NCBI GenBank assembly: GCA_964521295.1
Contig: CAZFRF010000001.1
Location: forward strand, 398,146 to 462,145
Origin: an uncultured Gammaproteobacteria bacterium
GTDB taxonomy: Bacteria; Patescibacteriota; Microgenomatia; Levybacterales; UBA12049
Direction: 5' to 3'
DNA: 64,000 bases
A model generated the notes under the pieces. That model ran no database searches and was not told where the DNA came from. It was given only the letters and a program-made list of their open reading frames with translations. Made by a program: the position numbers and the translations under genes. This document shows positions 10,132 through 47,834 of this stretch, one piece after another. How positions within the stretch are numbered: the first letter of the stretch is position 1; each line of letters begins with the position of its first letter.

Positions 10132-10134
10132 AAT

Positions 10135-29686: not shown

Positions 29687-30448
29687 ATGAAACTTCAACC
29701 AATTACTAAAACACAAAAACTCATACTTCTACTCCTCTATAAATTTCGCTTCTTAACTGTAGCCCAATTGCAACAATATCTTAACCATAAAGACCCACAT
29801 AGAATTAAAGCTTGGCTTAATGATTTAAAAGATAAAAAATATATATCTGCGGTTGTAGATACGAAAGACGTTACGGTTCCTTTTATCTATTGTCTCGCAA
29901 CTGGATCAAGACAAATTTTTAAAGAAAAAAATTATGATGAAGATTTCTTGAATAGAATATATAAAGAAAAAAGTTTATCAAAGGAATTTAAGAATCATTG
30001 CCTTTTTATTTTAGATATATATTTGTTCTTTCGCTCTCAACAAGAAAAAGATTCCATGCTTAATTTTTGTACAAGACAAGATTTAGCGGGTTTTGATTAT
30101 TTACCCGATGAAATTGATGCTTTTATAGAAGTTGGCATTAAAGACGAAATAAATAGATATTTCTTAGAACTATTTGACGAATATAGAAAAACAGCTGGAG
30201 AATCAAGATACGCTATTAGAAAATATATTTCGTATTCTGAAGAAGGTAATTGGCAAGGAAATACCGGGAATGCTCCATTTCCATCAATTCTTTTTGTTCT
30301 TCCAGATGAAAGACGAAAAAAACATATTAAATTTTATGGACATGCAAAACTGTCAAAAACTTTTGAAGACATTTCTTTATTCATAACTACAAAAAATAAT
30401 ATTCAATTTGCCAAGAAAAATATTAATATCTGGCAAAAGATAAGTTAA
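29687..30448 (+). CDS. replication-relaxation family protein (PF13814-like)
   Basis: N-terminus KTQKLILLLLYKFRFLTVAQLQQYL matches the characteristic winged-helix start of replication-relaxation proteins of conjugative elements. Confidence 0.5.
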   Translation: MKLQPITKTQKLILLLLYKFRFLTVAQLQQYLNHKDPHRIKAWLNDLKDKKYISAVVDTKDVTVPFIYCLATGSRQIFKEKNYDEDFLNRIYKEKSLSKEFKNHCLFILDIYLFFRSQQEKDSMLNFCTRQDLAGFDYLPDEIDAFIEVGIKDEINRYFLELFDEYRKTAGESRYAIRKYISYSEEGNWQGNTGNAPFPSILFVLPDERRKKHIKFYGHAKLSKTFEDISLFITTKNNIQFAKKNINIWQKIS

Positions 30449-30493: not shown

Positions 30494-31381
30494 TTACCCA
30501 GCCTTATCTCCTGGAGGACAATCCACAAGCTCTGTTTCTATAGTTGCGTGCTCAATCTGAAAATCATTTCTAAGTTTTTCTTTAATTACCTTTACTACCT
30601 CTATGCTTTCTTCCAATGTGCATTTTTCAATGGTAATATGACAACTAAGCGCAGCGTCGTGAGAAGAAATTGCCCAAGCATGTAAATCATCTGCATTCTT
30701 TACATTGGGAGTATCAAGTATTGAATGCTTTACCTTTTCTATATCTAATCCTTCAGGAGTACCCTCTAGCAGCACATGAACAGAAGCTCTTACAACACTC
30801 CAGCTTCCTCTAATGAGAAATATTCCAATAACGACACTAATCATTGAGTCAAAGATTGACATTCCGGTAATCATAATCAAAACACCCGCTACAAGTGCTC
30901 CAAAAGAAGCCAGGGCGTCAAAGATCATATTCATGTAGGCGCTTCTCATATTCAGATCTTTCTTTTCGCTTCTGAAAAGTAATGCAACACAAATATTTAC
31001 ACAAAGGCCTATAAACGCCACTATTGCCACAATTCCCCCCTCAACAGATTGCGGCGTTAAGAATCTTTGATAAGCTTCATAGAAAATATAAAGAGCGAGG
31101 AGGAATAATATCAAGCCGTTTATTAATGCTGCAAGAATTGTGGCTCTTCCGTATCCATAAGTATGTTCATCATTAGCTTTTCTCTTTGCAACCCTATTTG
31201 TTAAAAAAGAAATAAGTAAAGTTAAAGCATCAGTTAAATTATGTCCTGCATCTGAAATTAATGCGAGACTTCCAGACAGAATTCCTGCAATGAATTCAAT
31301 AATAGTGAATCCAACACTTAAGAATAGGCCTATTTTAAGTTTCTTATCAAGTCTTTCAGGGATATTATGATTTTCGCTCAT
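30494..31381 (-). CDS. cation diffusion facilitator (CDF) family metal efflux transporter
   Basis: Six TM helices, HNLTDAL, DALASFGAL and a His/Asp-rich cytoplasmic C-terminal domain. Confidence 0.75.
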   Translation of the reverse strand: MSENHNIPERLDKKLKIGLFLSVGFTIIEFIAGILSGSLALISDAGHNLTDALTLLISFLTNRVAKRKANDEHTYGYGRATILAALINGLILFLLALYIFYEAYQRFLTPQSVEGGIVAIVAFIGLCVNICVALLFRSEKKDLNMRSAYMNMIFDALASFGALVAGVLIMITGMSIFDSMISVVIGIFLIRGSWSVVRASVHVLLEGTPEGLDIEKVKHSILDTPNVKNADDLHAWAISSHDAALSCHITIEKCTLEESIEVVKVIKEKLRNDFQIEHATIETELVDCPPGDKAG

Positions 31382-31435
31382 GGCTTAATCTTAACATTTA
31401 GTTAAGTATAAAAATCACTTAGGCAAAATAAGGAA

Positions 31436-32620
31436 TTAATTAACATGAAGATAGTAGCTTTGTGTTCCATCATTATGTTCAATCCTAGAATAAAGTAATT
31501 GCCCACCACCGCATGCAATTCCTCCCTTATAAAGGGTGCCACCTTTTACAGCTTTTACTGATCTTGTAGATGTAGATGACATATCTATTCCAGTGTGAGG
31601 ACCGCCGCCATAATATACATTTGACCAAGCAGTTATACCATATCCTTGATTTATTGAAACAGGATCTGACAAAGGCCAAGTCCAAGAACCACTAAAGCTA
31701 AATTGTCCGTCAGGGCTATTATTCCATGTCACAGATTTATTACTTAAATAATTTCCTGGGTTATCTCTATTTCCGCCATTTTTCACTTCAAAATGCAAAT
31801 GTGTTCCTGAGGAACAAGTTGATGCTCCGCTTATCATACTTCCAATAGTATCACCTTCGTTAACAGGTCCCTGTGATATATCATCTCCACCTCCTGAGGT
31901 TATGCCAGCGATAGCTCTTTGTTCAGCAAGTGCTTTTTCAAGCCTATCCTGATAAATAGCTTCATCATTTTTTGTCAGTTCTAAAAGAGTATCTTTTTCT
32001 CGTTTTTCATTTGCTAGTTGAGTCGTATATCCTTCAAGATCTTTTTGTAATGATTGTATTTTCAGCTTTTTTCCTTCCAAAAGATTTTTTTGATTAGAAT
32101 AGTCATTTTTTGCTTGAACTGTGTCATAAATTAGTCTCTTATCACTCTGCTGAGCTATTTTTAGATAATTTGCTCTGACCATAAGATCAGAAATATTATT
32201 TGATGAAAGTAAAGTCTGAAAATTATTAGCTGATCCTGCTATATACGTTGCCCTTATTCTATTTATTAGAATTTCTGTTATGCCACTTAATGAGTTGTCC
32301 AATTTTTCTACTTTGTTATCAGCAATATCAATATCTAAAGTTATATCCGTTATCTGTTGTTTCGAAGATTCTATCTTTAAAGTTGTTAGTTCTATTTGAT
32401 TGTCCATCACTTGAATTTGAGATGATAGAGTCTTAGCTTGTCCCTGAAGTTCCGAAATTTTACTTTGATATTCATTAATCTGCTTTTGTAATTCGCTTGT
32501 TTTTGAAGCTTGCTCAGGAGAAACAGAAGGGGTAATAGACTGCGCATAAACAAAATTTAGTTCACTAAAAAATATAAGATTAATAGCAATGATTATTATT
32601 AATTTAAATTTGGACAGCAT
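31436..32620 (-). CDS. M23 family metallopeptidase with a long N-terminal coiled coil (EnvC-like)
   Basis: Signal peptide, Q/E/L-rich coiled coil, and C-terminal HTGIDM...HLHFEV M23 motifs. Confidence 0.7.
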   Translation of the reverse strand: MLSKFKLIIIIAINLIFFSELNFVYAQSITPSVSPEQASKTSELQKQINEYQSKISELQGQAKTLSSQIQVMDNQIELTTLKIESSKQQITDITLDIDIADNKVEKLDNSLSGITEILINRIRATYIAGSANNFQTLLSSNNISDLMVRANYLKIAQQSDKRLIYDTVQAKNDYSNQKNLLEGKKLKIQSLQKDLEGYTTQLANEKREKDTLLELTKNDEAIYQDRLEKALAEQRAIAGITSGGGDDISQGPVNEGDTIGSMISGASTCSSGTHLHFEVKNGGNRDNPGNYLSNKSVTWNNSPDGQFSFSGSWTWPLSDPVSINQGYGITAWSNVYYGGGPHTGIDMSSTSTRSVKAVKGGTLYKGGIACGGGQLLYSRIEHNDGTQSYYLHVN

Positions 32621-32640
32621 TGTGAATTACCTGATTTGAA

Positions 32641-32877
32641 TTATTTAGATTTTCTAGTGTTTAAATAGAAACCGATTGAAATTATAAACAAAGATATAAC
32701 TAAGAATCCTAATAAAACCATGTCATGGAATAATCTTGATTCAATCCCAAATACTGCCGGACAACCAATATTACCACAAAACGGAGTTCCCCCAAACTCA
32801 TCTCTAATTTTAAACTGAACTAAAGATAAAACTATAAGGATGGAAGAGATGGAAATTATTAATTTTTTTCTAGTCAT
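32641..32877 (-). CDS. small membrane protein with a CGNIGC Cys pair, hypothetical
   Basis: 78 aa, two TM helices. Its start overlaps the upstream DsbA stop. Confidence 0.3.
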   Translation of the reverse strand: MTRKKLIISISSILIVLSLVQFKIRDEFGGTPFCGNIGCPAVFGIESRLFHDMVLLGFLVISLFIISIGFYLNTRKSK

Positions 32878-33536
32878 AGCTCGGCGTCTATTTTGCCTTT
32901 AAACTCCTCGTAACTCATTACATTCCCTGCAAACATGCCATTGATATAGAATGTTGGAGTTCCATTAACACCTATCTCAATTCCTTCCTGCTTATCTCTA
33001 TTGGCTTTTTCATTATATTTGCCACTCTCAAGAACTGCTTTAAACTTTTCTATATCCAGATCCAACTCCTGTGCATATTTAATAAACAATTCTGTTTGAG
33101 GCTCTTTTTTTTCGCCCCAATCGAGCTGGTCCTCAAATAATTTGTCATGATATTCCCAATATTTTCCTTGTTCTCCTGCAGCCTCTACCGCATTAACTGC
33201 GAGAAGGGAATTATTATGATTTGGGAAATTTCTTACAACAAAATTTACTTTTCCTTCGTATTCTTTAAGAATCTGTTTAGAAACAGGGTGTACTGCCTTA
33301 CATGCTTCGCATTCATAATCAATAAACTCTACGATCGTTACTTTAGCATTCGGAACTATTATTTTTTGACTGTCTTCTCTAATAAGCTTTTTAGGATCAA
33401 TTTTTTGGGTCGCAAGCTGAGGGCTTTTTGATGATGGCACAGAATCTTTACTTAAAAAGAAAATTGCACCTCCTAGAATTACTAGCGTAATAAATCCTAA
33501 GCTCAATAATGCTTTTGCTTCACCACTTATGTTCAT
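32874..33536 (-). CDS. DsbA-like thiol:disulfide oxidoreductase
   Basis: TM anchor and a thioredoxin fold with the CEAC active site. Confidence 0.7.
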   Translation of the reverse strand: MNISGEAKALLSLGFITLVILGGAIFFLSKDSVPSSKSPQLATQKIDPKKLIREDSQKIIVPNAKVTIVEFIDYECEACKAVHPVSKQILKEYEGKVNFVVRNFPNHNNSLLAVNAVEAAGEQGKYWEYHDKLFEDQLDWGEKKEPQTELFIKYAQELDLDIEKFKAVLESGKYNEKANRDKQEGIEIGVNGTPTFYINGMFAGNVMSYEEFKGKIDAEL

Positions 33537-33961
33537 TCTTCTTGGACCTTTCTATAAATAAGCATACAAATAGTTATTACAGCAAAAGCTGTTAATGATA
33601 GGAATGGAATAGTAATAAATCCAAACCATGCAAAAAACTTCGTAGTGCATGAGATACCTAACTGACACGGTTTTATAGCTTCAGGAATTAAACCATAGTA
33701 AAGTAGGTTGTGATATCCTGAAATTACGAGTCCCGTTATGCTTAATGGCAGAACATACCTATAAATCCGTTTATTTTTTTCGAGAATTCCAACAGCAATA
33801 ATTACAACTAGCGGATACATTAATATCCGCTGATACCAACACAACACGCATGGAGTAAACTTCATTATTTCACTAAAGAAAAGGCTGCCTGACATTGCAA
33901 CTAGAGCCTGAATCCAGGCAATATATAATATATTTTTTTCTAAAAATTTTGTCATTTTCAT
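33533..33961 (-). CDS. DsbB-like disulfide bond formation protein
   Basis: Four TM helices, CVLCWYQR and a C-x-x-x-x-x-C pair in the second loop. Confidence 0.65.
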   Translation of the reverse strand: MKMTKFLEKNILYIAWIQALVAMSGSLFFSEIMKFTPCVLCWYQRILMYPLVVIIAVGILEKNKRIYRYVLPLSITGLVISGYHNLLYYGLIPEAIKPCQLGISCTTKFFAWFGFITIPFLSLTAFAVITICMLIYRKVQEE

Positions 33962-34227
33962 TCTCTTGCTAATTCTGCATCATAATTATCATCAATACCT
34001 CTAATAATAGTGACCAGTTTTTCAACTGATGTTACCTCAGGATCAAAAGTCACTTCAGTTACTTGCTTAGCATAGTTAGTTTTAGATTCTTTAACTCCTT
34101 CCGAATCTTCAAGCTCACCATCAATATTCATTGCACAACTTGTACAATGCATCCCAAAGATATTTAGCTTAATTTTGTTCATAATTATATTACATTTATT
34201 GTTCCACGAAACATTCCCATACTGCAC
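33958..34227 (-). CDS. heavy-metal-associated (HMA) domain protein (CopZ-like)
   Basis: GMHCTSCAMNI metal-binding motif. The true start is probably the internal MNKIKL at 34182, which would remove the overlap with the upstream gene. Confidence 0.65.
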   Translation of the reverse strand: MQYGNVSWNNKCNIIMNKIKLNIFGMHCTSCAMNIDGELEDSEGVKESKTNYAKQVTEVTFDPEVTSVEKLVTIIRGIDDNYDAELARE

Positions 34228-35222
34228 ATAAAAGCAAGTTGTGTTCCAGGTTCATTAGGAGCCGTAAAAGTGATTGTATCTGAATTACCCGTTGTTACGA
34301 TTTTCTGAATGTTAAATTTCGGTATCGTAAAAGCCTGAGCGCAACCTCCTCCACCATTATTTACCAAACGAAGCGTAACTTTTGATCCTGCTTTTACAGT
34401 TAAATTATCAGGGGTATATCCATTACCGTTTATCGTAATTGTTGCGTCAGTTACAGGATTTCCAGCTTTTAATCCTGAGGAATTAAAATCTTTATCACAA
34501 AAACTTATCGTGCAGTAAAAACTAGACCACGCATTTTCTAGAGTAAAATTGCTTCCAGTAAGAGCTAGGGCATTATTCATATTAAAAACTGCAAGAAGAA
34601 TAAGAGCATAAGCAGCCAACTTCATAAATCTTTTCTGCATAGCTTCTCCTAATCTTGTTGCCATATACCCTAAAATAAAAAATAGAGGTGAAGTACCTAA
34701 TACAAAAGCAAACATTATGGCTGCTCCTGAAAGCGGATTACCTGATGCGATTGCCAACGCCATCATAGCTTGAGTAGTTCCGCAGGGTATAAATACTGTA
34801 AATGCTCCAAGTATTGCAGGAGCAAATATACTTTTACTTTTTGATTCTTTTCTAACTAAACGGGTTAAAAAACGAGGAGGTTGAATAATAAAATATCTAA
34901 ATATCGGATGTACATTAAGTAACGCAAGTGCTGTACCTATCATAAAAATTGCCACAGCAATCTGAAGAAGAACATTTGTCGTAAGAGACATTTGGAAAAA
35001 AGATCCAAACCATCCAAGAAAAAACCCCAAAAATGTATATGCGACGAGTTTTGCAAGAACAAATGCAAGGATAGGAAGAGCATTACCTGTTTTTTTTGTT
35101 TTATCTTTTAACTTTTCTTCCTCTCGCTGCGCAATAGTAGTCGCAAGAAGTCCACCTTGTACTGCCAAACACGTAAGTGCTCCAGCAAAAAGTCCTGTTA
35201 AGAATATTGTTAATAAACTCAT
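34185..35222 (-). CDS. CcdA/DsbD-like (COG2836-type) membrane permease with a C-terminal cupredoxin-like domain
   Basis: Conserved Cys in TM1 (TCLAVQGG) and TM4 (IPCGTTQAM). The C-terminal soluble domain is beta-rich with Cys/Met (GGGGCAQAF...MCSMGMF). Confidence 0.4.
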   Translation of the reverse strand: MSLLTIFLTGLFAGALTCLAVQGGLLATTIAQREEEKLKDKTKKTGNALPILAFVLAKLVAYTFLGFFLGWFGSFFQMSLTTNVLLQIAVAIFMIGTALALLNVHPIFRYFIIQPPRFLTRLVRKESKSKSIFAPAILGAFTVFIPCGTTQAMMALAIASGNPLSGAAIMFAFVLGTSPLFFILGYMATRLGEAMQKRFMKLAAYALILLAVFNMNNALALTGSNFTLENAWSSFYCTISFCDKDFNSSGLKAGNPVTDATITINGNGYTPDNLTVKAGSKVTLRLVNNGGGGCAQAFTIPKFNIQKIVTTGNSDTITFTAPNEPGTQLAFMCSMGMFRGTINVI

Positions 35223-35225
35223 AAT

Positions 35226-36053
35226 TTATTTTAATTGTTTATCAATTTCAGTTTGAAATTCACTATAAGGCTGGGCTCCTATTATAGGTGTGCCAGTAAT
35301 GACTCCGTCAGAACTTGATTTTCCTATAAAAAACGATGGCGTACCAGTTGCTCCAACAGATGATGCATCAGCTAAATCTTTGTCTACTTCTTTCTTATAT
35401 TTCTCAGAATCCAAACATGCTTGCAATGCTGCTCCACTCAAACCAATATCATCTGCAATAACAGAAAGGTCTGTTAAAGCTATTCCGGCACCATTAGACG
35501 TGGTTCTCTTAAAAATCTCGTCATGATACTTGAAGTATGCGTCATCTCCACCTTGCTCTCTTGCGCACTCTGCTGCCTGTGCTTCCTTATGGGCATTTGC
35601 ATGAAAACTTAATGGCAAATCCCGAACAACATATTTTATTTTTCCTGTGTCTATATAGTTTTTCTTAATTTCAGAAAATGTTTCATCAAAATATCTCTTA
35701 CAGAATGGACATTCATAATCTGTAAAGTCTATCATGGTAACCTTAGCATCTTTATTACCTAGAATTGGATCATCATCTATCGATACTTTTTTAGGCGTAG
35801 TATCTTCAGGGGGATTTGCTTGAGAATCTCCAACTGCCTGCGGATCAGCTTGAATACTATTGCTTGATCCATTTGAATCTTCTAAGTAATTTACCTTTGT
35901 CCAAAGAGATCCTATTACAAAAGCTGCTAACACAAGCAATATCATTAAAATATACTGGATTTTGTTAGTTTTATTTATAGCAGGGGATAAACTCTTAGTA
36001 TCTTTATCGTCAACTAAACTATTTGTTTTAAATTTAGGTATTAGTCTTTTCAT
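35226..36053 (-). CDS. DsbA-like thioredoxin-fold oxidoreductase
   Basis: TM anchor, low-complexity linker, CPFC active site. Confidence 0.65.
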   Translation of the reverse strand: MKRLIPKFKTNSLVDDKDTKSLSPAINKTNKIQYILMILLVLAAFVIGSLWTKVNYLEDSNGSSNSIQADPQAVGDSQANPPEDTTPKKVSIDDDPILGNKDAKVTMIDFTDYECPFCKRYFDETFSEIKKNYIDTGKIKYVVRDLPLSFHANAHKEAQAAECAREQGGDDAYFKYHDEIFKRTTSNGAGIALTDLSVIADDIGLSGAALQACLDSEKYKKEVDKDLADASSVGATGTPSFFIGKSSSDGVITGTPIIGAQPYSEFQTEIDKQLK

Positions 36054-36123
36054 ATTCTTACTACGTATTGTAGTAGTAACTATTTTGCTTTGTCAAGAGC
36101 AATAATATTTAGATATTCTCTAT

Positions 36124-37140
36124 CTAATGCGCTGGGGTAAAAAGTTGCTCGGATTGTAAAGATTTATTATTTACTTCAGGTATTTCCGAATAAAATTTTT
36201 CTAAATTCTTTGGATCAGAACATGAATTTTTACAATTTCCATCAGCGCAAAGCATTATTACATCATGATTTTCATGATGTAATTCTCTTGCGTGAACAGG
36301 TAAAACAAAGACTGCAGTCAAAATTGCAAATGAAATCATGCTAAGTACTAGATTTTTAAAATTAAGCCTTCTTTTTTTATATGGTTTATTAAGTAATGAA
36401 AAAATTCTTGGTTCCAACGTATCATGATCTGCAATAGCAGCAACTACAACCATTTCAACAGTTGGAAAAGCGATAAGCTTCCTAAGTGCCGAAATAAGGA
36501 CATTCTGATCTCCTACTTTAGCGATAGAAAACTTATCCGCATCTATCTCTCTTTCAATTCTATATTTTTTTATCAAATCTCCTACAATTGGAAAAAATGG
36601 GAAGAGGGAGTATGCAACTGAGGCAACGGTCATTATAAAGGTATCATTTCTTTCAAGATGATACTGCTCATGCCTTAATACAGCTTCAAGCTCTCTCATT
36701 GTCAAGCCAGAAGAAAGACCTGTTGAGAAATAAATTTTAGGTTTTCTAAATCCCAAGCAAAACGCAAATCTTTTTTTTGATTTTATTAACACAGCTTTAT
36801 TTTGTAAACCCAAATTCGATAAGAAGATATTTGTATTTTTATCAGAGATTGCATCTTTTTTTAGCTTAATCCTAAGATCATGAACTTTAATGTTCAAAAC
36901 GAAAAATTTTAAAAATGAAATTACTAAAATTACTGAAAGAAACAAGAAGGGAATTATGCTTAGATAAAAAGGGATGGGAATCATCTTTGCATCAACCAAT
37001 AATGATTGACAGTAGTAAGTTACATGACCTATAAGCGGAAACAGCTTTTGAAATGTCAAAAATAGGACCATTCCTAATAAAATAAGAAGCCCTAAAAATG
37101 TAACTAAATTTCTATTTATTATTCTCATCATACTCATCAA
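36124..37140 (-). CDS. BlaR1/MecR1-like M56 family membrane zinc metalloprotease (signal transducer)
   Basis: Four TM helices, HEQYHLERND (HExxH with a downstream E). Translationally coupled (overlap) to a BlaI/CopY-family repressor gene. Confidence 0.65.
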   Translation of the reverse strand: MMSMMRIINRNLVTFLGLLILLGMVLFLTFQKLFPLIGHVTYYCQSLLVDAKMIPIPFYLSIIPFLFLSVILVISFLKFFVLNIKVHDLRIKLKKDAISDKNTNIFLSNLGLQNKAVLIKSKKRFAFCLGFRKPKIYFSTGLSSGLTMRELEAVLRHEQYHLERNDTFIMTVASVAYSLFPFFPIVGDLIKKYRIEREIDADKFSIAKVGDQNVLISALRKLIAFPTVEMVVVAAIADHDTLEPRIFSLLNKPYKKRRLNFKNLVLSMISFAILTAVFVLPVHARELHHENHDVIMLCADGNCKNSCSDPKNLEKFYSEIPEVNNKSLQSEQLFTPAH

Positions 37141-37495
37141 GAATTTTTAAAAAATATTTTCTTTTTTCGGCAGGTAATTCATCTATACTTTCCGCGAATG
37201 AAGCTACCGCTGTATCTCCATATGAATTAATAAAATTCTTTATAAATGATTTGGCAACATTTTTAGTATATTTTTCTTTTGAAACTTTAGGCGAATAAAT
37301 ATGTCCGGTGGCATTTTCTTTTCGAATGAGTAATCCTTTGTCGTAGAGTCTTTGAAGAATTGTTGCTACAGTTGTGTAAGCTAGCTTCTTGTCTTTCTCA
37401 AGCTCAATAAGTACATCTCGGACAGAGCAACTTTTACGCTCCCAAACAATGTCCATTATACGTTGCTCAAGTTCACCTAAAGAAGTCGATTTCAT
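37112..37495 (-). CDS. BlaI/MecI/CopY family transcriptional repressor
   Basis: Winged-helix N-terminus LEQRIMDIVWERKSCSVRDVLIEL...YTTVATILQRLYDKGLL. Confidence 0.75.
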   Translation of the reverse strand: MKSTSLGELEQRIMDIVWERKSCSVRDVLIELEKDKKLAYTTVATILQRLYDKGLLIRKENATGHIYSPKVSKEKYTKNVAKSFIKNFINSYGDTAVASFAESIDELPAEKRKYFLKILDEYDENNK

Positions 37496-37532
37496 AATAC
37501 TACATATTGTAGCAGGTTAGATAAAAAAATCA

Positions 37533-38453
37533 CTATTTTAAATATTTATCAAAAAAGTTGATCGTTCTTTCAGAAATCAAATCCCATCCCAAGTTTTGAA
37601 AGTTGTGATCTTGCCCTTTATATTCAAAGTATTCTATCTGCTTATTTTCTTTTTCTAAAGAGTTTAAAAGAGTGATGCTTGTTTTAGGATCAACTTCTGC
37701 ATCTAATAATCCTTGATGCAAACTAACTGGTAATAAAATATATTTAAGATTATCCATAAGATCAACATCTGAAGTATGACCACCACCGAGCGTTGGCGCC
37801 CAAAGGACTAATGCTTTTATTTTGTTTGTAGCTTCAACGGTTCGTAGAGACACCTCTCCACCCATGCTATGGCCCCACATGCCAACACGGGTTGGATCTG
37901 CTTTCTCTATATTCTCTACAGAAGCAATTAAATTGAGCACGTCTATTGCGTATTCTGGTTGATGACCTCCACCTTCTCCTTCAGATTCTCCATGCCCGCG
38001 ATAATCTGAAGCTAGAGTTATATAGCCATTATTTGCCAAAATTGTTGCCATTCCATTGGTCCCATCTCCAGTTTTAAATGTACGAATATTATAATAACCA
38101 TGATTGAGAAGAATTATGGGAAAGGGCCCATTTCCGTCTGGAATATTCATTGCAGCATAAATTTTGAGATTATCAGATGTGTATGAAATTATATATGGAG
38201 TAAAATTAGATTTTTTTGGAAGTTTTTTCTCAATTGTTATTTCTCCTTTGTTAAATTTGCGTAGACGCAGTTGTTCAATAAATGAATTTTCATCTTTAGT
38301 TGTAGCTTCTTGTAAGGTGCTATTTACTAATGAAGTGTTCTTATTGGTTGTTTTAAAGCCTTCCGTTGATAAATTTGTCTTTTTCCAATAAAAAAAGCCA
38401 CCAGCAATCATCACTACCAATATTACTAATAAAATATTTCGCAACTTCATCAT
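37533..38453 (-). CDS. secreted alpha/beta hydrolase (dienelactone hydrolase / S9-like)
   Basis: Signal anchor and a GHSMGG nucleophile elbow. Confidence 0.55.
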   Translation of the reverse strand: MMKLRNILLVILVVMIAGGFFYWKKTNLSTEGFKTTNKNTSLVNSTLQEATTKDENSFIEQLRLRKFNKGEITIEKKLPKKSNFTPYIISYTSDNLKIYAAMNIPDGNGPFPIILLNHGYYNIRTFKTGDGTNGMATILANNGYITLASDYRGHGESEGEGGGHQPEYAIDVLNLIASVENIEKADPTRVGMWGHSMGGEVSLRTVEATNKIKALVLWAPTLGGGHTSDVDLMDNLKYILLPVSLHQGLLDAEVDPKTSITLLNSLEKENKQIEYFEYKGQDHNFQNLGWDLISERTINFFDKYLK

Positions 38454-38459
38454 TATAAA

Positions 38460-39383
38460 TTATCGAACTTTGTTCCATGAAATCCCTTCATCTGTACTTT
38501 TATAAATACTGTTTTTATCTGTGAGCAGGTAAAGCATTTCAGGTTGTTTTTTGTTAAACGCTATATAAAGCGGCGTTTCTTGGGCAAAATTTACTTCAAT
38601 TTTTTCCCATGATTTCCCCCCATCTTTACTTTGCATAAGCTGTTGATCTTGGGAATAAATGAGTACCTGCTGAGGATTTTTGGGATGTATAGCAATTGCA
38701 GTTACGAGATCATCCAATAATTTATTCCAGGCATCACCTTTATTTGTACTTACCATTAGCCCCTGCTGACTTGCTGCATAAACAATGTTCTCATCATTTG
38801 GATCAGCTGCTAGACTTACAATAGGAAAAGTAGCACTCTTTACTATCTCCCAGTTTTTTCCTTCATCAGTAGTTCTTTGCAATTCTCCCATAAATGTACC
38901 ATAAATAAGATTTGGATTTGGGGGACTGACAGTCATTGTATGATAATCAACAGGTCCATTAATTCCATCTGATATTTTCTCCCAACTTAACCCACCGTCT
39001 TCACTTTTTTGAAATCCTAAATTTCCACCTGTTTGCGGATGTCCACTGCTAAAATATACTTTGGGATTAGTGGGATGTGCTGAAAAACCCATCAAATCGT
39101 CCTCAACGGTACCGATTCGAGAAAGTATTGAGTCATTTTGCAAGACCAATAATCCGTGATGGGTAGCAATATACAATTTACTTCCATCCACTACATCAAC
39201 GCTTAATCCATGTGCATGCGATATGGAATCAACAGGAGTAAGTTGATTTTCTGATATCAGCGTGTTGGATGATTGACTATTTGTACTTTGCTTATTCTTG
39301 TCTCTGGAACTTGCTACAACAATTCCAATCACTAACAGTAATGTTATTCCAACTACACCATAAATAATATATTTATTTTTCAT
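38460..39383 (-). CDS. BNR/Asp-box repeat beta-propeller protein (Ycf48-like)
   Basis: Repeated S/TxDGGxSW motifs: SEDGGLSWE, TDEGKNWE, KDGGKSWE, TDEGISWN. Confidence 0.55.
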   Translation of the reverse strand: MKNKYIIYGVVGITLLLVIGIVVASSRDKNKQSTNSQSSNTLISENQLTPVDSISHAHGLSVDVVDGSKLYIATHHGLLVLQNDSILSRIGTVEDDLMGFSAHPTNPKVYFSSGHPQTGGNLGFQKSEDGGLSWEKISDGINGPVDYHTMTVSPPNPNLIYGTFMGELQRTTDEGKNWEIVKSATFPIVSLAADPNDENIVYAASQQGLMVSTNKGDAWNKLLDDLVTAIAIHPKNPQQVLIYSQDQQLMQSKDGGKSWEKIEVNFAQETPLYIAFNKKQPEMLYLLTDKNSIYKSTDEGISWNKVR

Positions 39384-39385
39384 AA

Positions 39386-39583
39386 TTATATTTTGTACTC
39401 ATTCTTCATAGAAAATGATATGTTACCTCGCATAAAAAAACAAACGACAAATGATAATAAAAATATCAATATTGTAAAGCCAACATATGGTAGAAAATAG
39501 ATTAATCCAGAAACTAAGAAAAATCCTGTTGTAATAACCAACGAATTTATAAGTCTTCTGTGTAAAATAAAAAAGTTACTCAT
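39386..39583 (-). CDS. small hydrophobic protein, hypothetical
   Basis: 65 aa, two TM helices, sandwiched with 3-4 nt overlaps between copA and the propeller gene. Confidence 0.25.
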
Positions 39584-41892
39584 ATTTTAGATTTCTTTAA
39601 AAGAAGAGAATTTGTTATAACTGAAACGCTGCTAAATGCCATTGCAGCTCCTGCAATAGCAGGACTAAGCATAACTCCTGTAAATGGATACAAAATTCCA
39701 GCGGCAATTGGTATACCTATAATATTATAGAAAAATGCCCAGAAAAGATTTTGTTTTATTACACGCATAGTTGATCGAGATAGCCTTATAGCTTTGGGTA
39801 ATTTTGAGATATTACCACCAAGAAGGGTAATTCCCGCTGATTCAATTGCAACATCTGTCCCTGTACCCATCGCAACTCCAACATCAGCAGTAGCAAGCGC
39901 CGGAGCATCGTTAATACCATCCCCAACCATTGCCACCTTGTATCCTTCATCCTGTAACTTCTTAACCTCGTTTGCTTTATCTGCTGGGAGAACTTCAGCA
40001 ATTACTCGATCAATCCCTACTTGCTTTGCTATATGCTCTGCAGTACGACTGTTATCTCCAGTTAACATAGCTACTTTTATACCAAGGTCATGTAATGCTG
40101 ATACTGCTTCTTGTGCATCATCTTTTATCGTATCGGCAATAGCAATATACGCAAGAATTCCTTTTTTAGTTGCAAGAATTACTGGTGTTTTCCCCTGTGA
40201 AGTCATTTTCTTAATAAGATTAGCATCAACTTTTAATCCCAAATCTTCTACTAGCTTAAGATTTCCAGCAAAATATTGCACCCCAGCAATCGTCCCTTCG
40301 AGTCCTTTCCCTTCTAGTGCTTTAAAGTTTGAAACCGACAATAAGTCCACCTTGTCTTCATTTGCCTTTTCTACAACAGCTTGAGCCAATGGGTGTTCTG
40401 ATTGTTTTTCAAGAGATGCAAGAAGCTGCAGCACCTTTTTCTGCGCTATTTTTGCAGTTACATTAACATCAGTAACTGCAGGCTTACCATTGGTTATAGT
40501 TCCTGTTTTATCCATTACAACAAAGTTAATACTTTGGAATTTCTCAAGACTTTCTGCATTTTTAATCAAAATTCCATTCTGTGCTGCCTTTCCAACTCCA
40601 ACTATTACCGCTGTTGGGGTTGCAAGTCCCATTGCGCAAGGACAAGCAATGACAAGAATACCAACAAAACTAATCAAACCAAGTGAAAATGCCTGTGAAA
40701 TTGGCATAAATTGAGAACCAATAATAATCCATATAAGAAACATAACTACTGCAAAAACCAAAACAATAGGAACAAAAACACCAGATACTTGATCTGCAAT
40801 TCTTTCTATAGGAGCCTTTGATCCCTGTGCTGACTCAACCATTTTGATAATTTGCGATAACACCGTTTGCTCGCCTACTTGAGTCGCTTTCATCTGAAAT
40901 GCACCATATTTATTCATCGTTGCACCAATCACAGAATCTCCAGCAACTTTATCTACAGGAATTGGTTCACCGGTAATCATTGATTCATCAACTGAAGATT
41001 TGCCAGAAATAATCTCACCATCTATTGGAATTTTTTGGCCCGGTTTAACAATTAAAATATCACCGACTACGACTTGCCCTATTGGGACCTCTAACTCTTT
41101 TCCGTCACGGATTACTACAGCAATTTTTGCACTAAGACCTAACAATTTTTCAATTGCCGCACCAGTTTTTAGTTTTGATTTCGCTTCAAGATACTTTCCC
41201 AACGTAATAAATCCGATAACGACAATCGTAACATCATAATATAACCCTTCAGGCGCATTCAAAAAAATCTTTATTTCAGGGAAGAACAGCATTATGCTAC
41301 TGTAAAAATATGCAACAAGAGTACCGATACCTACTAATGTATCCATATTGGCAACTCTATATTTGATAAAACGAGTGACACCTTCTATAAATGGTTTCCC
41401 AATCCAAAACATCACAGGTGTTGCTAAAATAAATGAAGCAATGTTAAAAGCATCCATAGAAAGTGGAAAAGTAGGCAAAAAAGCGACACGCTGCGAAAGG
41501 ATTTCCCAGAGCATAAGAATAAATACGATTATTGCTATCGGCATGACAAATATGGTTTTTTGTCGCATTTCTTCCAACTCTTTAAGCTTCTCTTCTTTTG
41601 ATTGAGATGTTCCTAAATGCTCTGAATGATCCATACCAGCTTGCTGACTATGATCCATCGTTTTATGCTCTGCGTGATTTTCTGTATTTACGAATGAGTA
41701 CCCAAGTTTATTTATTTCGCGATTCATTGTATTTACTGAAACTTGAGATGGATCATATGCGACTGAGGCTTTTTCAGTTGCAAAATTAACTTCACAACTC
41801 GATATACCTGGGAGCTTTTTTAACTTTCTTGTAATAATTGCACTACAACTTGCGCAATGCATACCTTTTATCTGAAACGTATTTGTTTCCAT
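39580..41892 (-). CDS. copA: copper-translocating P1B-type ATPase
   Basis: N-terminal HMA domain [15 protein letters not shown] motif ([12 protein letters not shown]), DKTGTIT phosphorylation site, GDGINDAP hinge. Confidence 0.9.
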
Positions 41893-41895
41893 TTT

Positions 41896-43050
41896 TTAAG
41901 GTGTCCCTCCAGACTTATGTGACCATAAACTAATTCCATTTGGCATTCTACCTACTTTTATTTTTGTAATTTCTTTATCGGTTGCAGTACTAATAACTGA
42001 AACATCATCGCTCAAAAGATTAGAAACATATACTCTTTTTCCATCAGGAGAAACAACTACGCCATGGGGTGCAACTCCAGCTTTAATAGTCGAAGCGATT
42101 TGTCTTGCCTGTACATCAATCTTATATACAAAATCGCTTGTTGGCTTCTCAAAATAAAATCCTTGATCGGCTACATATAAATACTGGCCATCTGGCGTAG
42201 CGTATAATTGTATTGCGCCTTCAGCTCCAAATGGCAAATCTACATAGAAGACCTCCTCTGTAAGAGAATCGTAAAAAGCTATCTGTTTTGTGTCGTAAAC
42301 AGAGGCTGCAACATAGTTAGTATTAGGAATAACTGCTGTCTGTACTGCACTACCAGAAAGTGAAATTGTTTTTACTTCATTTGTTCTAGTGTTAACTAAT
42401 CCAATTCCTTTACCACCTATAAGAGCGACATATGCTCTCATATCGTCTCCTGAAAGCCTAAGACCATGCGGTTGTGTATCTTTAGCGAAAGCTATCGTTC
42501 TCTCTATATTATATGTCTCTCCATTGATTTTATAGACCAATCCTGATTCCTGGGCAGTTGCAAATATACTTTTCCCATCACGAGTTATTACTACATGAGC
42601 TAAATGTTGATCTATTCCTATGTCAATACGCTTGACTATCACATCTCTTTGAGGATCAATAATAATTATCTGATCTGGAAATGCCTTTTCTACTTCTTTC
42701 TCAGAATTATTGCTTTCCTCTCCATGCTCTTCAAGTCCCATGAAGTTTGCTGTTACCCATATACTCTTACCATCTGGGGCTACCTGAACATTGTGTGCAA
42801 TGTATTTCTTCTTCATATCTCCTCCTGAGTCAGTAATATCAATATTGCCAAGTAGCGAATTATCACTCGTATCAATTACAGCGACTGCTCCACCCTCTTC
42901 TAAAGCAACATATAGTTTTTCAGCAGCTTGATTTTGTTTTACGGACGAGCTGCTTGGGGATGCAATTTGATCCGAAATAAAAGCAAATCCTAGAACAATC
43001 ACAACAAAGATAAAGGAAATAATTACATATGTGTATTTTGATAATTGCAT
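41896..43050 (-). CDS. YVTN-family beta-propeller repeat protein
   Basis: Signal anchor and repeated about 40-aa units (YVALIGGKGIGLVN, YVSNLLSDDVSVIS) typical of YVTN/lactonase propellers. Confidence 0.5.
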   Translation of the reverse strand: MQLSKYTYVIISFIFVVIVLGFAFISDQIASPSSSSVKQNQAAEKLYVALEEGGAVAVIDTSDNSLLGNIDITDSGGDMKKKYIAHNVQVAPDGKSIWVTANFMGLEEHGEESNNSEKEVEKAFPDQIIIIDPQRDVIVKRIDIGIDQHLAHVVITRDGKSIFATAQESGLVYKINGETYNIERTIAFAKDTQPHGLRLSGDDMRAYVALIGGKGIGLVNTRTNEVKTISLSGSAVQTAVIPNTNYVAASVYDTKQIAFYDSLTEEVFYVDLPFGAEGAIQLYATPDGQYLYVADQGFYFEKPTSDFVYKIDVQARQIASTIKAGVAPHGVVVSPDGKRVYVSNLLSDDVSVISTATDKEITKIKVGRMPNGISLWSHKSGGTP

Positions 43051-43125
43051 ATAATTTATTTTTAAGTTTTAACTAGTTATCTCCTTGGAAGAAGTGCATT
43101 TCTTATTGCACCTCTCCTAAAAAGA

Positions 43126-43773
43126 TTACTGAGAATAACCCCAATCAGCATACCATTGCCTCATCTGGTCAATTTCATCTGTCTGAGCAGTTATTATGTC
43201 GTCTGCTAACTTCTTCATTTCAGGTCTTTGTGTCCCTCCTTTAAGCATACTTGCCATCATCACAGCCATTTGGTGATGTGGAATCATATCTTCTATGAAC
43301 GCTTTATCAAAGTCCTCTGTATTTTCAAGTCTTGTCATGTCAGTATCGTTACCCATCATTCCCATGTGCATACTGTTTCCCATTCTCATTCCGTGTTGAT
43401 TCATGACATTATTTCCTTCAGGAACATCTTTGCCAAACCAAGCTATGTACCAATCTTTCATTTGGTTAATTTCTGCTCCTTGAGAACTAATGATATTTTC
43501 TGCTAACTGTTTTATTTCAGGCCTCTGTGCTTTTTCCTGAGCAAGTTCTGCCATCGTTATTGCATCTTCGTGATGTGGAATCATTTGTTCTATAAAATGT
43601 GCGTCGATTGTATTAGAATCCTGCACTGTGCTTAGCTGATTTCCATTTTTATAACCCATCATTCCCATCACATTCGCATTATTTGAATTAACAATTATCA
43701 TAGTAGTAATCCATACAATTAACCCTCCAACAATTAACCCTCCAATTCCATACATTAGTTTATCGTTTTTCAT
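43126..43773 (-). CDS. DUF305 domain protein, internally duplicated (copper-associated family)
   Basis: Two repeats, FIEQMIPHHEDAITMA...INQMKDWY and FIEDMIPHHQMAVMMA...IDQMRQWY, plus a Met/His-rich linker. Confidence 0.6.
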   Translation of the reverse strand: MKNDKLMYGIGGLIVGGLIVWITTMIIVNSNNANVMGMMGYKNGNQLSTVQDSNTIDAHFIEQMIPHHEDAITMAELAQEKAQRPEIKQLAENIISSQGAEINQMKDWYIAWFGKDVPEGNNVMNQHGMRMGNSMHMGMMGNDTDMTRLENTEDFDKAFIEDMIPHHQMAVMMASMLKGGTQRPEMKKLADDIITAQTDEIDQMRQWYADWGYSQ

Positions 43774-43827
43774 ATTCTCACCCCCTTATCTTATTAAGAT
43801 TAAATACCCATATTCATATTTATGCAC

Positions 43828-44637
43828 CTATGATTCAACAACGCTTACGACACCTCCAAAGCCGGGATTTATATGATCATGAAATTCCCATTTACCCTTT
43901 TTGTCAAATACATATCTATAAATTGCACTTTTTTTGTAAGCTCTAAATTGATCAAATGTTGGTAATATGGTGTGTTGTGGATGAGACATAGACGCAACCC
44001 ACATATCTGTACTACTCTCATTTATAAATTCAACCGTACTACCAACTGGAACATCTACTTTATCCGGCACAAATCCTTTATCCGTATAACGAATTTTCGC
44101 CATAGTTTTTGCGCCTTTCATTGCATGAGTCATTCCAGCAGATTCTCCTTCAGTAATACTTGTTGGTAATGATTTACCTGATTTTACGTATCGGGCCGTC
44201 ATAAAACCGTTTTCATCAATTGCTGGCATGTCAAGATCGTTAAATGTACTGTCATTTGCATAATCCTCATAAATCATGACAATCAGCTCTTGATTTGCAA
44301 CTTTAGCATTTCCTAGTGGAATCTCTACATTTTTATGCATGCCTTTTTGTAATGGTCGACTCATTTCAATAACTTGACTCAACTTACCATCATTCATTTG
44401 TCGAACTACAAGAAAACCGTTCTTTTGTAATATTGCACTTGCAACATTTACCTTATCTTTAGGTTTTTGGGGAACAACCACAAGATTTTTTGTATTTTGA
44501 CTATTAACCTTTTCTCCTCTATCTTGAGACCGAAGTGTTTTTGTCGATGGCTTACTTTTATTCAGAAAAATAAAAACTACTGAAACCGTTACTGCTAGAA
44601 ACCCACAAAAAACGATAAAAAATTGTAGTGCTTTCAT
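43828..44637 (-). CDS. secreted hypothetical protein with His/Met-containing C-terminal beta domain (possible cupredoxin-like metal binder)
   Basis: Signal anchor. The C-terminus reads GSTVEFINESSTDMWVASMSHPQH...EFHDHINPGFGG. Confidence 0.3.
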   Translation of the reverse strand: MKALQFFIVFCGFLAVTVSVVFIFLNKSKPSTKTLRSQDRGEKVNSQNTKNLVVVPQKPKDKVNVASAILQKNGFLVVRQMNDGKLSQVIEMSRPLQKGMHKNVEIPLGNAKVANQELIVMIYEDYANDSTFNDLDMPAIDENGFMTARYVKSGKSLPTSITEGESAGMTHAMKGAKTMAKIRYTDKGFVPDKVDVPVGSTVEFINESSTDMWVASMSHPQHTILPTFDQFRAYKKSAIYRYVFDKKGKWEFHDHINPGFGGVVSVVES

Positions 44638-44909
44638 TATTGTCTTTTTTTAAAAACCTCCATTATTTCATTAATTGATTTATCAGCTTCTCCTTTTTTA
44701 ATCGCATCCGAAACGCAAGACTTAAGGTGATTTTCAAGAAGTAGGTTGCCCGTTTCTTTAAGTCCTGATTCAACTGCCTGAATTTGATGAATAACATCAA
44801 TGCAATAAGCATCTTCATCCATCATCTTAATGACTTTATCGAGGTGTCCTCGTGCAATCTTGAGACGGTGAGTAATTCTTTCGTGTGTGTCTTTTGGTCT
44901 GTATGCCAT
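44637..44909 (-). CDS. csoR: CsoR/RcnR family metal-sensing transcriptional repressor
   Basis: 90 aa all-helical. It carries the conserved C-H-C ligand set (YCIDVIHQ ... HLKSC). Confidence 0.8.
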   Translation of the reverse strand: MAYRPKDTHERITHRLKIARGHLDKVIKMMDEDAYCIDVIHQIQAVESGLKETGNLLLENHLKSCVSDAIKKGEADKSINEIMEVFKKRQ

Positions 44910-44932
44910 ATATCCCCCTATGAGGGATATAT
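44908..44932. promoter_or_regulatory. candidate CsoR operator: ATATATCCC-N7-GGGATATAT perfect 9-bp inverted repeat
   Basis: It resembles known CsoR operators (AT-rich arms with internal C/G tracts). It overlaps the csoR start codon and the -10 region. Confidence 0.55.
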
Positions 44933-44957
44933 TAAAGATTTACGAAATGAAAGTCAA
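44929..44957 (-). promoter_or_regulatory. sigma70-like promoter for the csoR/copper operon
   Basis: Read on the minus strand: -35 TTGACT (44952-57), 17-nt spacer, -10 TAATAT (44929-34). Confidence 0.45.
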
Positions 44958-45053: not shown

Positions 45054-45080
45054 AAACTGCTTGGGGGCAGTTTTTTGGTT
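45054..45080 (+). promoter_or_regulatory. leader stem-loop (AAACTGC-TTGGGG-GCAGTTT) followed by a T-run, between the promoter and the pilin RBS; terminator-like attenuator candidate
   Basis: 7-bp stem and 6-nt loop, then TTTTTTGGTTTT. It sits immediately upstream of the SD AGGAGG at 45086-91. Confidence 0.35.
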
Positions 45081-45098
45081 TTGAAAGGAGGTGAGAAT

Positions 45099-45443: not shown

Positions 45444-45460
45444 AAATTAGAAAGGAACTT

Positions 45461-47833: not shown

Positions 47834-47834
47834 T

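Follow-up and report, generated by a model that had tools for sequence, protein, structure and literature searches.

The 64-kb stretch of DNA analyzed here (hereafter the window) was AT-rich, at about 30% GC, and carried at 30494 to 44909 a cargo block of 18 back-to-back open reading frames (ORFs), all on the minus strand, which by Pfam and motif reading ran from a CDF cation exporter at the low-coordinate end to the Cu(I) repressor CsoR at the high-coordinate end (Table 1). The block combined CsoR/CopA copper efflux with thiol-disulfide proteins and with a BlaI-like repressor paired with a BlaR1-like M56 protease, and it was situated inside a 29.2-kb segment (24947 to 54142) bounded by tRNA-Glu(CTC) and Lon. 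A sequence-only reading of this stretch had named the same gene families for the block, and the Pfam matches bore its list out. The surrounding chromosome probably belongs to the Microgenomatia within the Patescibacteria. On balance, we favor the interpretation that the cargo is a two-input copper-stress regulon carried on an integrative element of conjugative type, as judged from its genes, conserved residues and predicted operators.

Table 1. Genes and predicted regulatory sites of the cargo block and of the segment that carries it, in window coordinates.
Feature	Position	Strand	Basis
tRNA-Glu(CTC), attachment-side boundary	24870-24946	+	ARAGORN, Rfam
Large serine recombinase, 3' end overlapping the tRNA	24925-26463	-	Resolvase + Recombinase + Zn_ribbon_recom; XisF/Ccr-like
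Type IV coupling protein (VirD4/TraD-like)	26966-29506	+	TrwB_AAD_bind, TraG-D_C; NCBIfam TraD-like below cut-off
Replic_Relax-like protein, candidate relaxase	29687-30448	+	PF13814, 24.2 bits against a cut-off of 25.3
CDF cation exporter	30494-31381	-	Cation_efflux 1.4e-44, ZT_dimer; homologues in L004/L011, L015
Coiled-coil protein with incomplete or permuted M23 domain (EnvC/PcsB-like)	31436-32620	-	Peptidase_M23, CC_PcsB
78-aa membrane protein with C34/C39	32641-32877	-	ORF without Pfam match; also in identical contigs L115, L116
DsbA1, membrane-anchored, DsbA-like (CEAC)	32874-33536	-	Thioredoxin_4 1e-29, DSBA
DsbB/BdbC-like protein (CVLC; C99/C105)	33533-33961	-	PF02600 5e-12
CopZ-like HMA protein (CTSC)	33958-34227	-	HMA 5.7e-13
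DsbD_2 (CcdA-like, six transmembrane helices) + CupA-like cupredoxin fusion	34185-35222	-	DsbD_2 1.5e-32, Cupredoxin_1 2.5e-13
DsbA2, membrane-anchored, DsbA/BdbD/ScsC-like (CPFC)	35226-36053	-	Thioredoxin_4 2.1e-29
Promoter-like TTGACA-18-TACAAT overlapped by BlaI-box variant CTACAATACGTAGTA (36059-36073), ahead of dsbA2	36059-36096	-	Predicted
BlaR1-like M56 zinc protease, 338 aa	36124-37140	-	Peptidase_M56/M48; HEQYH
BlaI/MecI-type repressor	37112-37495	-	Penicillinase_R 2.9e-27
BlaI box CTACAATATGTAGTA, immediately upstream of the blaI start codon (ATG)	37498-37512	-	Predicted
Alpha/beta hydrolase, membrane-anchored or secreted	37533-38453	-	Hydrolase_4, Peptidase_S15; syntenic in L002, L006, L008
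BNR/sortilin-type beta-propeller	38460-39383	-	Sortilin-Vps10 3.3e-19
65-aa membrane protein	39386-39583	-	ORF; identical in L001
CopA, P1B-1 Cu(I) ATPase	39580-41892	-	E1-E2_ATPase, Hydrolase, HMA
YNCE/YVTN-type beta-propeller	41896-43050	-	YNCE 2.6e-10
DUF305 protein with Met/His-rich insert	43126-43773	-	DUF305 9.6e-46
DUF7282 + cupredoxin-like protein	43828-44637	-	DUF7282 1.8e-13; Cupredoxin_1 22.4 bits, below cut-off
CsoR Cu(I) repressor	44637-44909	-	Trns_repr_metal 5.4e-25
csoR promoter-like site TTGACT-17-TAATAT with predicted CsoR-type operator ATATCCCTCATAGGGGGATAT (44910-44930)	44910-44957	-	Sequence
Type IV secretion genes: VirB2-like pilin, TrbL/VirB6, PrgI/VirB3, split VirB4, M23 hydrolase	45075-50278	+	Pfam, NCBIfam
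Remainder of segment: HTH, PLD-like nuclease, orf407, orf164, guanylate-kinase-like gene, orf197	50309-54142		Absent where Lon abuts tRNA-Glu

The efflux half of the cargo resembled known copper operons. CsoR matched PF02583 at 88 bits (cut-off, 22.8) and aligned to CsoR of Mycobacterium tuberculosis (2hh7, E=1.1e-18) with the Cu(I) ligands C36, H61, and C65 matched, a set that was conserved in 11 homologues. The predicted operator at its promoter, ATATCCCTCATAGGGGGATAT, was an inverted repeat of G/C tracts that occurred once in the window, and the same box preceded csoR in three related loci (L002, L004, and L006). CopA began with a ferredoxin-type HMA domain, and its CPC, DKTGT, TGE, GDGxND, YN, and MxxSS motifs and N-terminal CASC stood at the expected positions. 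With the CsoR-CopZ-CopA operons of the M. tuberculosis and Bacillus subtilis type, the cargo shares a CsoR that has the C-H-C ligand set and a G/C-tract operator in the csoR promoter, a P1B-1 CopA that starts with an HMA domain, and a small CxxC HMA chaperone. Here, in contrast, the chaperone gene was not in the csoR operon but in another one, downstream of the DsbD_2 fusion gene; the csoR operon also carried genes for DUF7282 and DUF305 proteins, two propellers, and a hydrolase, and relatives of the window add a BlaI-type operator to the csoR promoter. The soluble part of the DUF7282 protein contained histidine and no cysteine.

Two metal-sensing repressors had been claimed for the block, the second of them labeled BlaI/CopY. 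CsoR had the domain and ligands that this claim called for, whereas the second repressor was of the BlaI type. It matched Penicillinase_R at 95.8 bits (cut-off, 22.6), its residues 6 to 107 aligned to Staphylococcus aureus BlaI (1sd4, 1.9e-11), and it was also close to MecI and to M. tuberculosis Rv1846c; a conserved ASFA segment aligned to LNFA of BlaI, in the NF region of BlaI and MecI. CopY is defined by a C-terminal CxC or CxC...CxC metal site, and its cop box, TACAnnTGTA, has a 2-nt spacer (PMC5772342). The window's repressor had a single cysteine (C23, in the DNA-binding domain), a C-terminal cysteine was present in none of 24 homologues, and the spacer of its predicted box was 3 nt. We rejected the CopY identity on the missing C-terminal CxC, without which this protein cannot sense copper in the way that CopY does. 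With CopY and CopR of Enterococcus, Lactococcus, and Streptococcus it shares the Pfam DNA-binding family, a related TACA..TGTA box, and a copper locus, though it lacks their Cu(I)/Zn(II) motif and, unlike CopY, is paired with a protease.

The partner protease gene overlapped blaI in the window and was adjacent to it in every M56 locus that we examined. Its product matched Peptidase_M56 at 42.1 bits (cut-off, 31) with an invariant HEQYH, and the best fold match of its predicted structure was the membrane and zinc-protease part of S. aureus BlaR1 (8exp/8exr). No transpeptidase match that would mark a penicillin-binding sensor domain was found in the M56 protein, in which only about 55 residues follow the last transmembrane helix, and its score against the NCBIfam model blaR1_generic was 30.7 bits for a cut-off of 400. 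Across 65 sequences, HExxH, C44, C128, and C307 were invariant, and H39, H288, D293, C298, and C303 were conserved in at least 90%. C44 fell in the first extracytoplasmic loop (HxxYYCQS, H39/C44), and the C-terminal tail, PVHAKELHHEEHDVMMLCTDGxCMNSC, held three cysteines, of which the last was invariant. A gene for a winged-helix Penicillinase_R repressor that overlaps an M56 protease gene and has a TACA/TGTA palindrome as operator in the repressor promoter is the arrangement of BlaI/BlaR1 and MecI/MecR1 in Staphylococcus and of Rv1846c/Rv1845c in M. tuberculosis, and the protease fold matched S. aureus BlaR1. Compared with BlaR1 and MecR1, the M56 protein lacks the penicillin-binding sensor, whose place is taken by the Cys/His tail and the loop with H39 and C44; compared with BlaI and MecI, the half-sites are separated by 3 nt rather than 2 (PMC5772342), and the predicted regulon consists of copper and thiol genes rather than beta-lactamase or PBP2a.

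The predicted operator of this pair, the 15-mer CTACAATAYGTAGTA, had exactly two copies in the window, one before the blaI ATG and the other before dsbA2, where it overlapped the -10 element of the best promoter-like site in the region. Among related loci, the dyad stood before blaI in about 18, an equivalent box stood before dsbA2 in nearly all, and about 42 of 49 TACAnnnTGTA sites lay directly upstream of blaI, dsbA2, or csoR. We counted 42 occurrences of the extended box CTACAnnnTGTAG across 390 kb of M56 loci and none across 1.09 Mb of related Patescibacteria DNA that lacked M56. In L002, L004, L006, L008, and L010, the csoR-copA promoter held both a BlaI box and a CsoR box, and these sites suggest that the BlaI/M56 pair would regulate the operon that encodes it as well as that of dsbA2, with copA added in some relatives. 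The wiring of the two circuits thus differed between copies of the module, the csoR promoter of the window having lost a BlaI box or never had one.

The conserved effector part of the cargo consisted of dsbA2 followed by the DsbD_2/cupredoxin fusion gene and, always 3' of the latter in the loci examined, the HMA gene. The fusion protein scored 113.6 bits against DsbD_2 and 31.3 bits against DsbD_TM and belonged to a highly conserved family with more than 5,500 matches, identity being 69 to 83% among the top 120. Eight residues were invariant in 52 sequences: C18, C147, C237, C242, C294, C333, M335, and M337. Of these, C18 in the first and C147 (PCG) in the fourth transmembrane helix form the CcdA/DsbD signature, C237 and C242 follow directly after the sixth helix, and C294 together with C333-x-M335-x-M337 (C333-S-M-G-M) supplies the copper-site ligands of the cupredoxin domain. 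The earlier description of a CcdA-like permease with a cupredoxin-like tail was correct as far as it went and can be sharpened, as the tail ends in a Cu(I) site of CupA type (C...CxMxM). Its best fold match in the PDB was pneumococcal CupA (4f2e, TM-score of 0.80, root-mean-square deviation of 2.6 by Foldseek), the metal-binding domain of pneumococcal CopA (4f2f) was also matched, and in a sequence alignment with CupA both cysteines and the CxMxM coincided. CupA of Streptococcus pneumoniae shares with the tail this cupredoxin fold and the Cys...Cys-x-Met-x-Met pattern, and in relatives small CupA-like proteins with a membrane anchor are encoded between csoR and copA as well. In the window, by contrast, the tail is fused to the C terminus of a six-helix DsbD_2 protein instead of having a single N-terminal anchor, it is predicted to face outward, and CopA has an HMA rather than a cupredoxin-type N terminus. 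The small CupA-like proteins of L004 (5904 to 6263) and L006 (5550 to 5909) had one transmembrane helix and the C...CxMxM pattern, and their position mirrored pneumococcal copY-cupA-copA; the CopAs of these two loci had ferredoxin-type HMA N termini.

DsbA2, whose gene was kept after that of the M56 protease in about 22 loci, matched BdbD in the PDB at 9e-17 and the ScsC family more weakly, at 1e-10 to 1e-7. In Proteobacteria, copper homeostasis and that of envelope redox are connected by the Scs system (PMC10907172). Like ScsABCD of Salmonella, Proteus, and Caulobacter, the cargo has a DsbA-like protein, a putative DsbD-family reductant transporter, and a predicted link to copper, though the membrane partner is a six-helix DsbD_2 protein with a CupA-like tail instead of ScsB, the host belongs to the Patescibacteria and is assumed to have a single membrane, and the genes are carried on a mobile island and apparently lie under BlaI/M56. 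In Salmonella, Scs is controlled by Cpx. Fusion proteins 70 to 71% identical to that of the window were encoded on two contigs of metagenome-assembled genomes labeled Limnocylindrales and Methylomirabilota (L033, DATLDE010000004.1, and L034, DASQPC010000054.1), which reflects either transfer across phyla or mis-binned Patescibacteria contigs. Both had a csoR-cupredoxin-copA-fusion-HMA operon that lacked BlaI, M56, and DsbA, and since the fusion gene there directly follows copA within a csoR operon, it is tied to copper independently of the BlaI/M56 pair.

The core of the module, CsoR-CopA ... BlaI-M56-DsbA-(DsbD_2/cupredoxin)-HMA, was kept in about 22 Patescibacteria loci with differing mobile contexts, and CopA adjoined BlaI/M56 in most loci that were long enough (L014 and L029 had no CopA in the fetched stretch). 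All named relatives of the M56 protein came from Patescibacteria, namely Woese-, Levy-, Gottesman-, Collier-, and Roizmanbacteria and WWE3. In L010, L015, and L025, the copper module occupied the equivalent slot beside a coupling protein and a Replic_Relax-like gene. The coupling of CsoR/CopA efflux to thiol-disulfide proteins, as first proposed from this one stretch, was thus a conserved association, and one that moves between an element with a type IV secretion system (T4SS), islands with a recombinase only, and a prophage-like region. The last of these was L006 (JGI Ga0400895_000052, 1 to 17050), where the module was situated between SU10-type major capsid and portal genes and where ARAGORN called an odd tRNA-like sequence between M56 and dsbA2 (11080 to 11151). 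A scan of viral contigs for M56 relatives found none, and L006 remains a single case. L010 and L011 were two diverged copies of the module within one 1.6-Mb genome (OZ246394.1), one beside coupling-protein, Replic_Relax, and VirB4 genes and the other ending in a serine recombinase at tRNA-Lys.

The complete DsbA/DsbB/CcdA system that the sequence-only reading had described was present in the window, where the two DsbA proteins carried CEAC and CPFC and DsbB carried CVLC and the C99/C105 pair; it did not hold as a feature of the module, as DsbB was not found by blastp in other M56 loci. The same search also failed to find the 78-aa protein and the coiled-coil M23 protein in those loci, and DsbA1 and the CDF exporter were present in a few. 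Unannotated genes of 157 to 179 aa that follow HMA in L002, L004, and L006 were considered as DsbB candidates and rejected, their products being His-rich with a single N-terminal hydrophobic segment. DsbB had more than 7,700 homologues in the database; it is an accessory here and not part of the conserved system.

Patescibacteria T4SS clusters have been reported as near-universal, chromosomal, and mostly without a detectable relaxase, and they were argued to be non-conjugative (PMC12102498). Because of this claim, we tested whether the 29.2-kb segment is inserted, by comparing 80 metagenome loci whose Lon was 71 to 87% identical to that of the window. In most of the 80, the order was Lon, tRNA-Glu(CTC), GT2, MptA-like, PMT_2. 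At least eight relatives (L037, L047, L051, L062, L064, L093, L102, and L113) had only 2 to 25 nt between the Lon stop codon and tRNA-Glu, Lon being 75 to 85% identical to that of the window in relatives with this adjacency, and in other relatives the interval measured 0 to 9 kb compared with 29.2 kb in the window. L058 held in this interval a small csoR...dsbD2cup-HMA island, and L101 held a serine recombinase abutting the tRNA; in L015, a recombinase 62% identical to that of the window likewise abutted tRNA-Glu(CTC). Other copies of the copper module ended with serine recombinases at tRNA-Gln (L002 and L008) or tRNA-Lys (L004). Since Lon directly precedes tRNA-Glu in relatives, the segment from 24947 to 54142 is an inserted element, and the interval between the two genes is an integration hot spot. 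The placement of the cargo on a mobile element held up in this comparison: conjugation and integration genes flank it, and the segment is missing from close relatives. From these genes, the carrier is probably an integrative element of conjugative type inserted at the 3' end of tRNA-Glu(CTC).

The right end of the element falls somewhere between about 50.3 and 54.1 kb. A Logan contig 100% identical to the window stopped 32 nt past tRNA-Glu. An exact 29-mer search of JGI metagenomes for the host-side junction gave no match, and among exact-protein look-ups Lon was unmatched and GT2 and gmk retrieved only short contigs of the same strain. A guanylate-kinase-like gene (52809 to 53474) and the ORFs at 52278 to 52772 and 53505 to 54098 lay inside the segment and were absent from relatives in which Lon adjoins the tRNA; they could be cargo, the remains of another island, or relocated host genes. 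At the left end, a small ORF separated the serine recombinase from the coupling protein. The Replic_Relax-like gene adjoined a coupling protein repeatedly (in the window, L010, L015, L025, and L074), and its product could be a divergent relaxase missed by standard MOB profiles in this phylum. VirB4 scored above the cut-off of the NCBIfam CD1110 family (387 against 325 bits). It was split into adjacent ORFs in different frames (47222 to 47833 and 47835 to 49655), the larger of which covered positions 187 to 734 of the 752 in the CD1110 profile, and the split is either a frameshift, whether from pseudogene formation or sequencing error, or natural. A CD1110-type VirB4, a coupling protein, VirB6- and VirB3-like proteins, a wall hydrolase, and a recombinase at one end are shared with the MPF-FATA integrative and conjugative elements (ICEs) of monoderms that use a large serine recombinase, of the Clostridioides CTn/Tn5397 type. 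The window's element differs from these in having only a subthreshold Replic_Relax-like protein and no canonical relaxase, in having VirB2-like pilins, and in its host phylum, for which the T4SS was proposed to be non-conjugative (PMC12102498).

The composition of the cargo had been read as a sign of recent acquisition from a different background. Cargo genes were indeed GC-richer than host genes, with a per-gene mean of 0.341 compared to 0.311 (p=0.0014). However, the rise was mainly in the first two codon positions, GC at the third staying near that of the host (0.247 against 0.224, p=0.02), and Lon and its neighboring housekeeping genes to the right had an overall GC equal to that of the cargo. 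The cargo looks GC-rich because it is contrasted with the very AT-rich glycosylation cluster at 1 to 24.8 kb (27 to 33% GC). In relatives, the GC of the module followed the local genome, from 30 to 45%, and the closest homologues of the cargo came from other Patescibacteria (81 to 82% identity for CopA, in L002 and L008, and 83% for the fusion protein). These results do not support the acquisition claim, and we rejected a foreign GC signature as evidence of a distant donor on third-position GC, right-flank GC, and the tracking of local genome GC by the module. At most, composition would agree with exchange inside one class, among members of slightly higher GC.

In the mechanism that we propose, Cu(I) would bind C36, H61, and C65 of CsoR and release it from the operator ATATCCC-N5-GGGGGATAT overlapping the csoR promoter, after which transcription would run through csoR and the genes for the DUF7282 and DUF305 proteins, the propeller, CopA, the BNR protein, and the hydrolase, with CopA exporting Cu(I). 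The second input would come through the Cys/His/Met/Asp ectodomain of the M56 protein, which may detect external copper or copper-driven oxidation of thiols and then cleave the BlaI-like repressor. Once cleaved, the repressor would leave the CTACAnnnTGTAG boxes that overlap the -10 elements of the blaI-M56 and dsbA2 operons and, in several relatives, would also leave the box at csoR-copA. The conserved products derepressed in this way would be the DsbA/ScsC-like oxidoreductase, the CopZ-like HMA protein, and the CcdA-like transporter with its CupA-like tail, to which the window adds DsbB, a second DsbA, and the CDF exporter. Because three cysteine pairs of the fusion protein are invariant, a thiol relay is suggested, which would lead from C18/C147 in the membrane through C237/C242 in the linker to C294/C333 of the copper site with M335 and M337. 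Such a relay could maintain the external copper site in a reduced state, and probably DsbA2 as well, allowing Cu(I) to be bound and wrong disulfides made by copper to be repaired. A thiol relay that starts in the cytoplasm and ends at the external Cu(I) site is the most economical reading, and it would parallel the function of Scs. The signal of the M56 protein, cleavage of BlaI, direction of electron flow, topology, and effect on copper tolerance are what we infer from sequence, gene order, and the conserved operator, and the copper response of the BlaI/M56 pair we infer only from its regulon; its most likely signal would be copper, or thiol damage made by copper, outside the cell.

Several observations weigh against this mechanism. 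The outward-facing tail is predicted by the positive-inside rule only (three K/R-rich loops placed in the cytoplasm), and pneumococcal CupA faces the cytoplasm, where it feeds CopA (PMC7558416). For the M56 loop and tail, the AlphaFold2 (AF2) model had a predicted local distance difference test score of about 50 and showed no metal site; as the ectodomain model is unreliable, we drew no Cys/His cluster from it. The transmembrane domain of the fusion protein had no CcdA structure among its top fold matches and its family is named TauE/SafE by NCBI, both of which also weaken the case for electron transport. The csoR promoter of the window has only a CsoR box, so the two circuits are not wired together in this copy. 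Patescibacteria are reported to be without a respiratory chain or electron-transport-chain complexes (PMC8672522), which puts the expected quinone-dependent reoxidation of DsbB in question. On the side of the element, no canonical relaxase in the window passed its threshold, the Replic_Relax-like protein also had no NCBIfam match, and an att search found no direct repeat of the tRNA 3' end of at least 12 nt at any plausible right end, an absence that is expected of a recombinase of the serine type.

The fusion protein might alternatively be a metal transporter that passes Cu(I) from the CupA-like domain through the membrane cysteines to the HMA protein, much as MerP and MerT do, with DsbA2 as an ordinary folding catalyst. 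The fixed place of the HMA gene behind the fusion gene and the invariant copper ligands would suit such a role, as would the NCBI family name of TauE/SafE and the lack of any CcdA structure among the top Foldseek matches of the transmembrane domain. DsbD-type membrane domains are also assigned to the wider LysE superfamily, which includes metal exporters. We nevertheless regard transport as unlikely, as DsbD_2 and DsbD_TM of Pfam both match, the cysteines in the first helix and in the PC of the fourth are the CcdA/DsbD signature, and the additional invariant CxxxxC between membrane and copper site resembles a redox relay. Importing copper and exporting it through CopA to the same compartment would be of no obvious benefit to a single-membrane cell, and the HMA protein may simply be the CopZ partner of CopA. 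The BlaI/M56 pair, for its part, might answer to some general signal from the envelope or cell wall that has nothing to do with copper (zinc, cadmium, or exported proteins that misfold, for example) and lie near copA only through co-transfer on islands. The ligand of sensor-less BlaR1 homologues is unknown and the ectodomain is poorly modeled, a CDF exporter and M23 proteins are encoded nearby, and the window's own csoR promoter has no box. Against this, the conserved members of the regulon carry sites of Cu(I) type (CxMxM in the cupredoxin and CxxC in HMA), five csoR-copA promoters have a BlaI box beside the CsoR box, and BlaI/M56 is next to CopA in most sufficiently long loci, all of which makes a general signal improbable in our view.

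The remaining alternative questions the element itself, taking the flanking T4SS as a resident, non-conjugative chromosomal system and the copper genes as ordinary chromosomal genes of a variable region. It would agree with the account of near-universal T4SS clusters mostly lacking relaxases (PMC12102498), with the below-cut-off Replic_Relax match and the split VirB4, and with the failure to find att repeats. We give it little credence. At least eight relatives lack the entire 29.2-kb stretch between Lon and tRNA-Glu, along with its T4SS genes, and a large serine recombinase abuts the tRNA in the window, L015, and L101. Serine recombinases also bound other copies of the module, at tRNA-Gln or tRNA-Lys; a further copy is in a prophage-like setting, and one genome carries two. 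Taken to its full extent, our preferred reading would make the M56/BlaI pair an unrecognized class of extracytoplasmic sensor for copper or thiol oxidation that governs, with CsoR, a mainly Patescibacteria regulon whose key effector is a CcdA-CxxxxC-CupA relay, all of it on a true integrative T4SS element. In this full form we hold it tentatively, as a possibility that falls somewhat short of probable.

Some features lay outside these questions. In the coiled-coil M23 protein (31436 to 32620), HLH (residue 274) preceded HTGID (342) and the Peptidase_M23 profile was covered from 2 to 52 of 96, so that it is probably a permuted or truncated, non-catalytic relative of EnvC/PcsB. Gene calls in L115, a contig identical to the window, place the probable start of HMA at 34182 (74 aa) and that of DsbB at 33955 (140 aa). 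The left part of the window (1 to 24800) was occupied by an envelope glycosylation cluster that encodes a flippase, enzymes of the GT1 and GT2 families, several membrane glycosyltransferases of PMT_2/PTPS_related type, and three YfhO-like proteins. To the right, at 56637 to 59076, a gene for a PRC-barrel + MgtE_N + CBS protein, without a reported MgtE membrane domain, overlapped the start of an Nramp gene, and as this pair was kept beside Lon in relatives, the protein is suggested to be a regulatory partner of Nramp.

The constituents of the island are of known kinds, namely CsoR/CopA efflux, copper-linked Dsb oxidoreductases, BlaI/BlaR1 signaling, CupA cupredoxins, and monoderm-type ICEs with serine recombinases. 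In the open-access literature, we found no description of a BlaR1-like protease with a Cys/His tail acting at copper and thiol genes through a TACA/TGTA box with a 3-nt spacer, nor, as far as we found, of a CcdA-CupA fusion, nor of a conserved association of the M56/BlaI pair with that fusion on mobile islands of Patescibacteria; such a search is no proof of novelty. Copper-resistance islands carried by integrative elements are common among bacteria and form the ordinary part of the finding, whereas experiments are warranted on the regulatory pair, on the fusion protein, and on the cleanly supported insertion in Patescibacteria. The comparison with clean empty sites bears on the mobility of Patescibacteria T4SS clusters, which have been viewed as fixed chromosomal systems (PMC12102498). 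If a BlaR1-like protease does sense copper or thiol oxidation, BlaR1/BlaI signaling would extend beyond antibiotics and a sensor-less M56 protein would have a ligand, and the CcdA-CupA fusion would be a new way to handle copper outside the cell. Patescibacteria are tiny, mostly uncultured, and host-dependent, and little is known of their stress responses, for which this module offers a testable regulon with a clear predicted operator.

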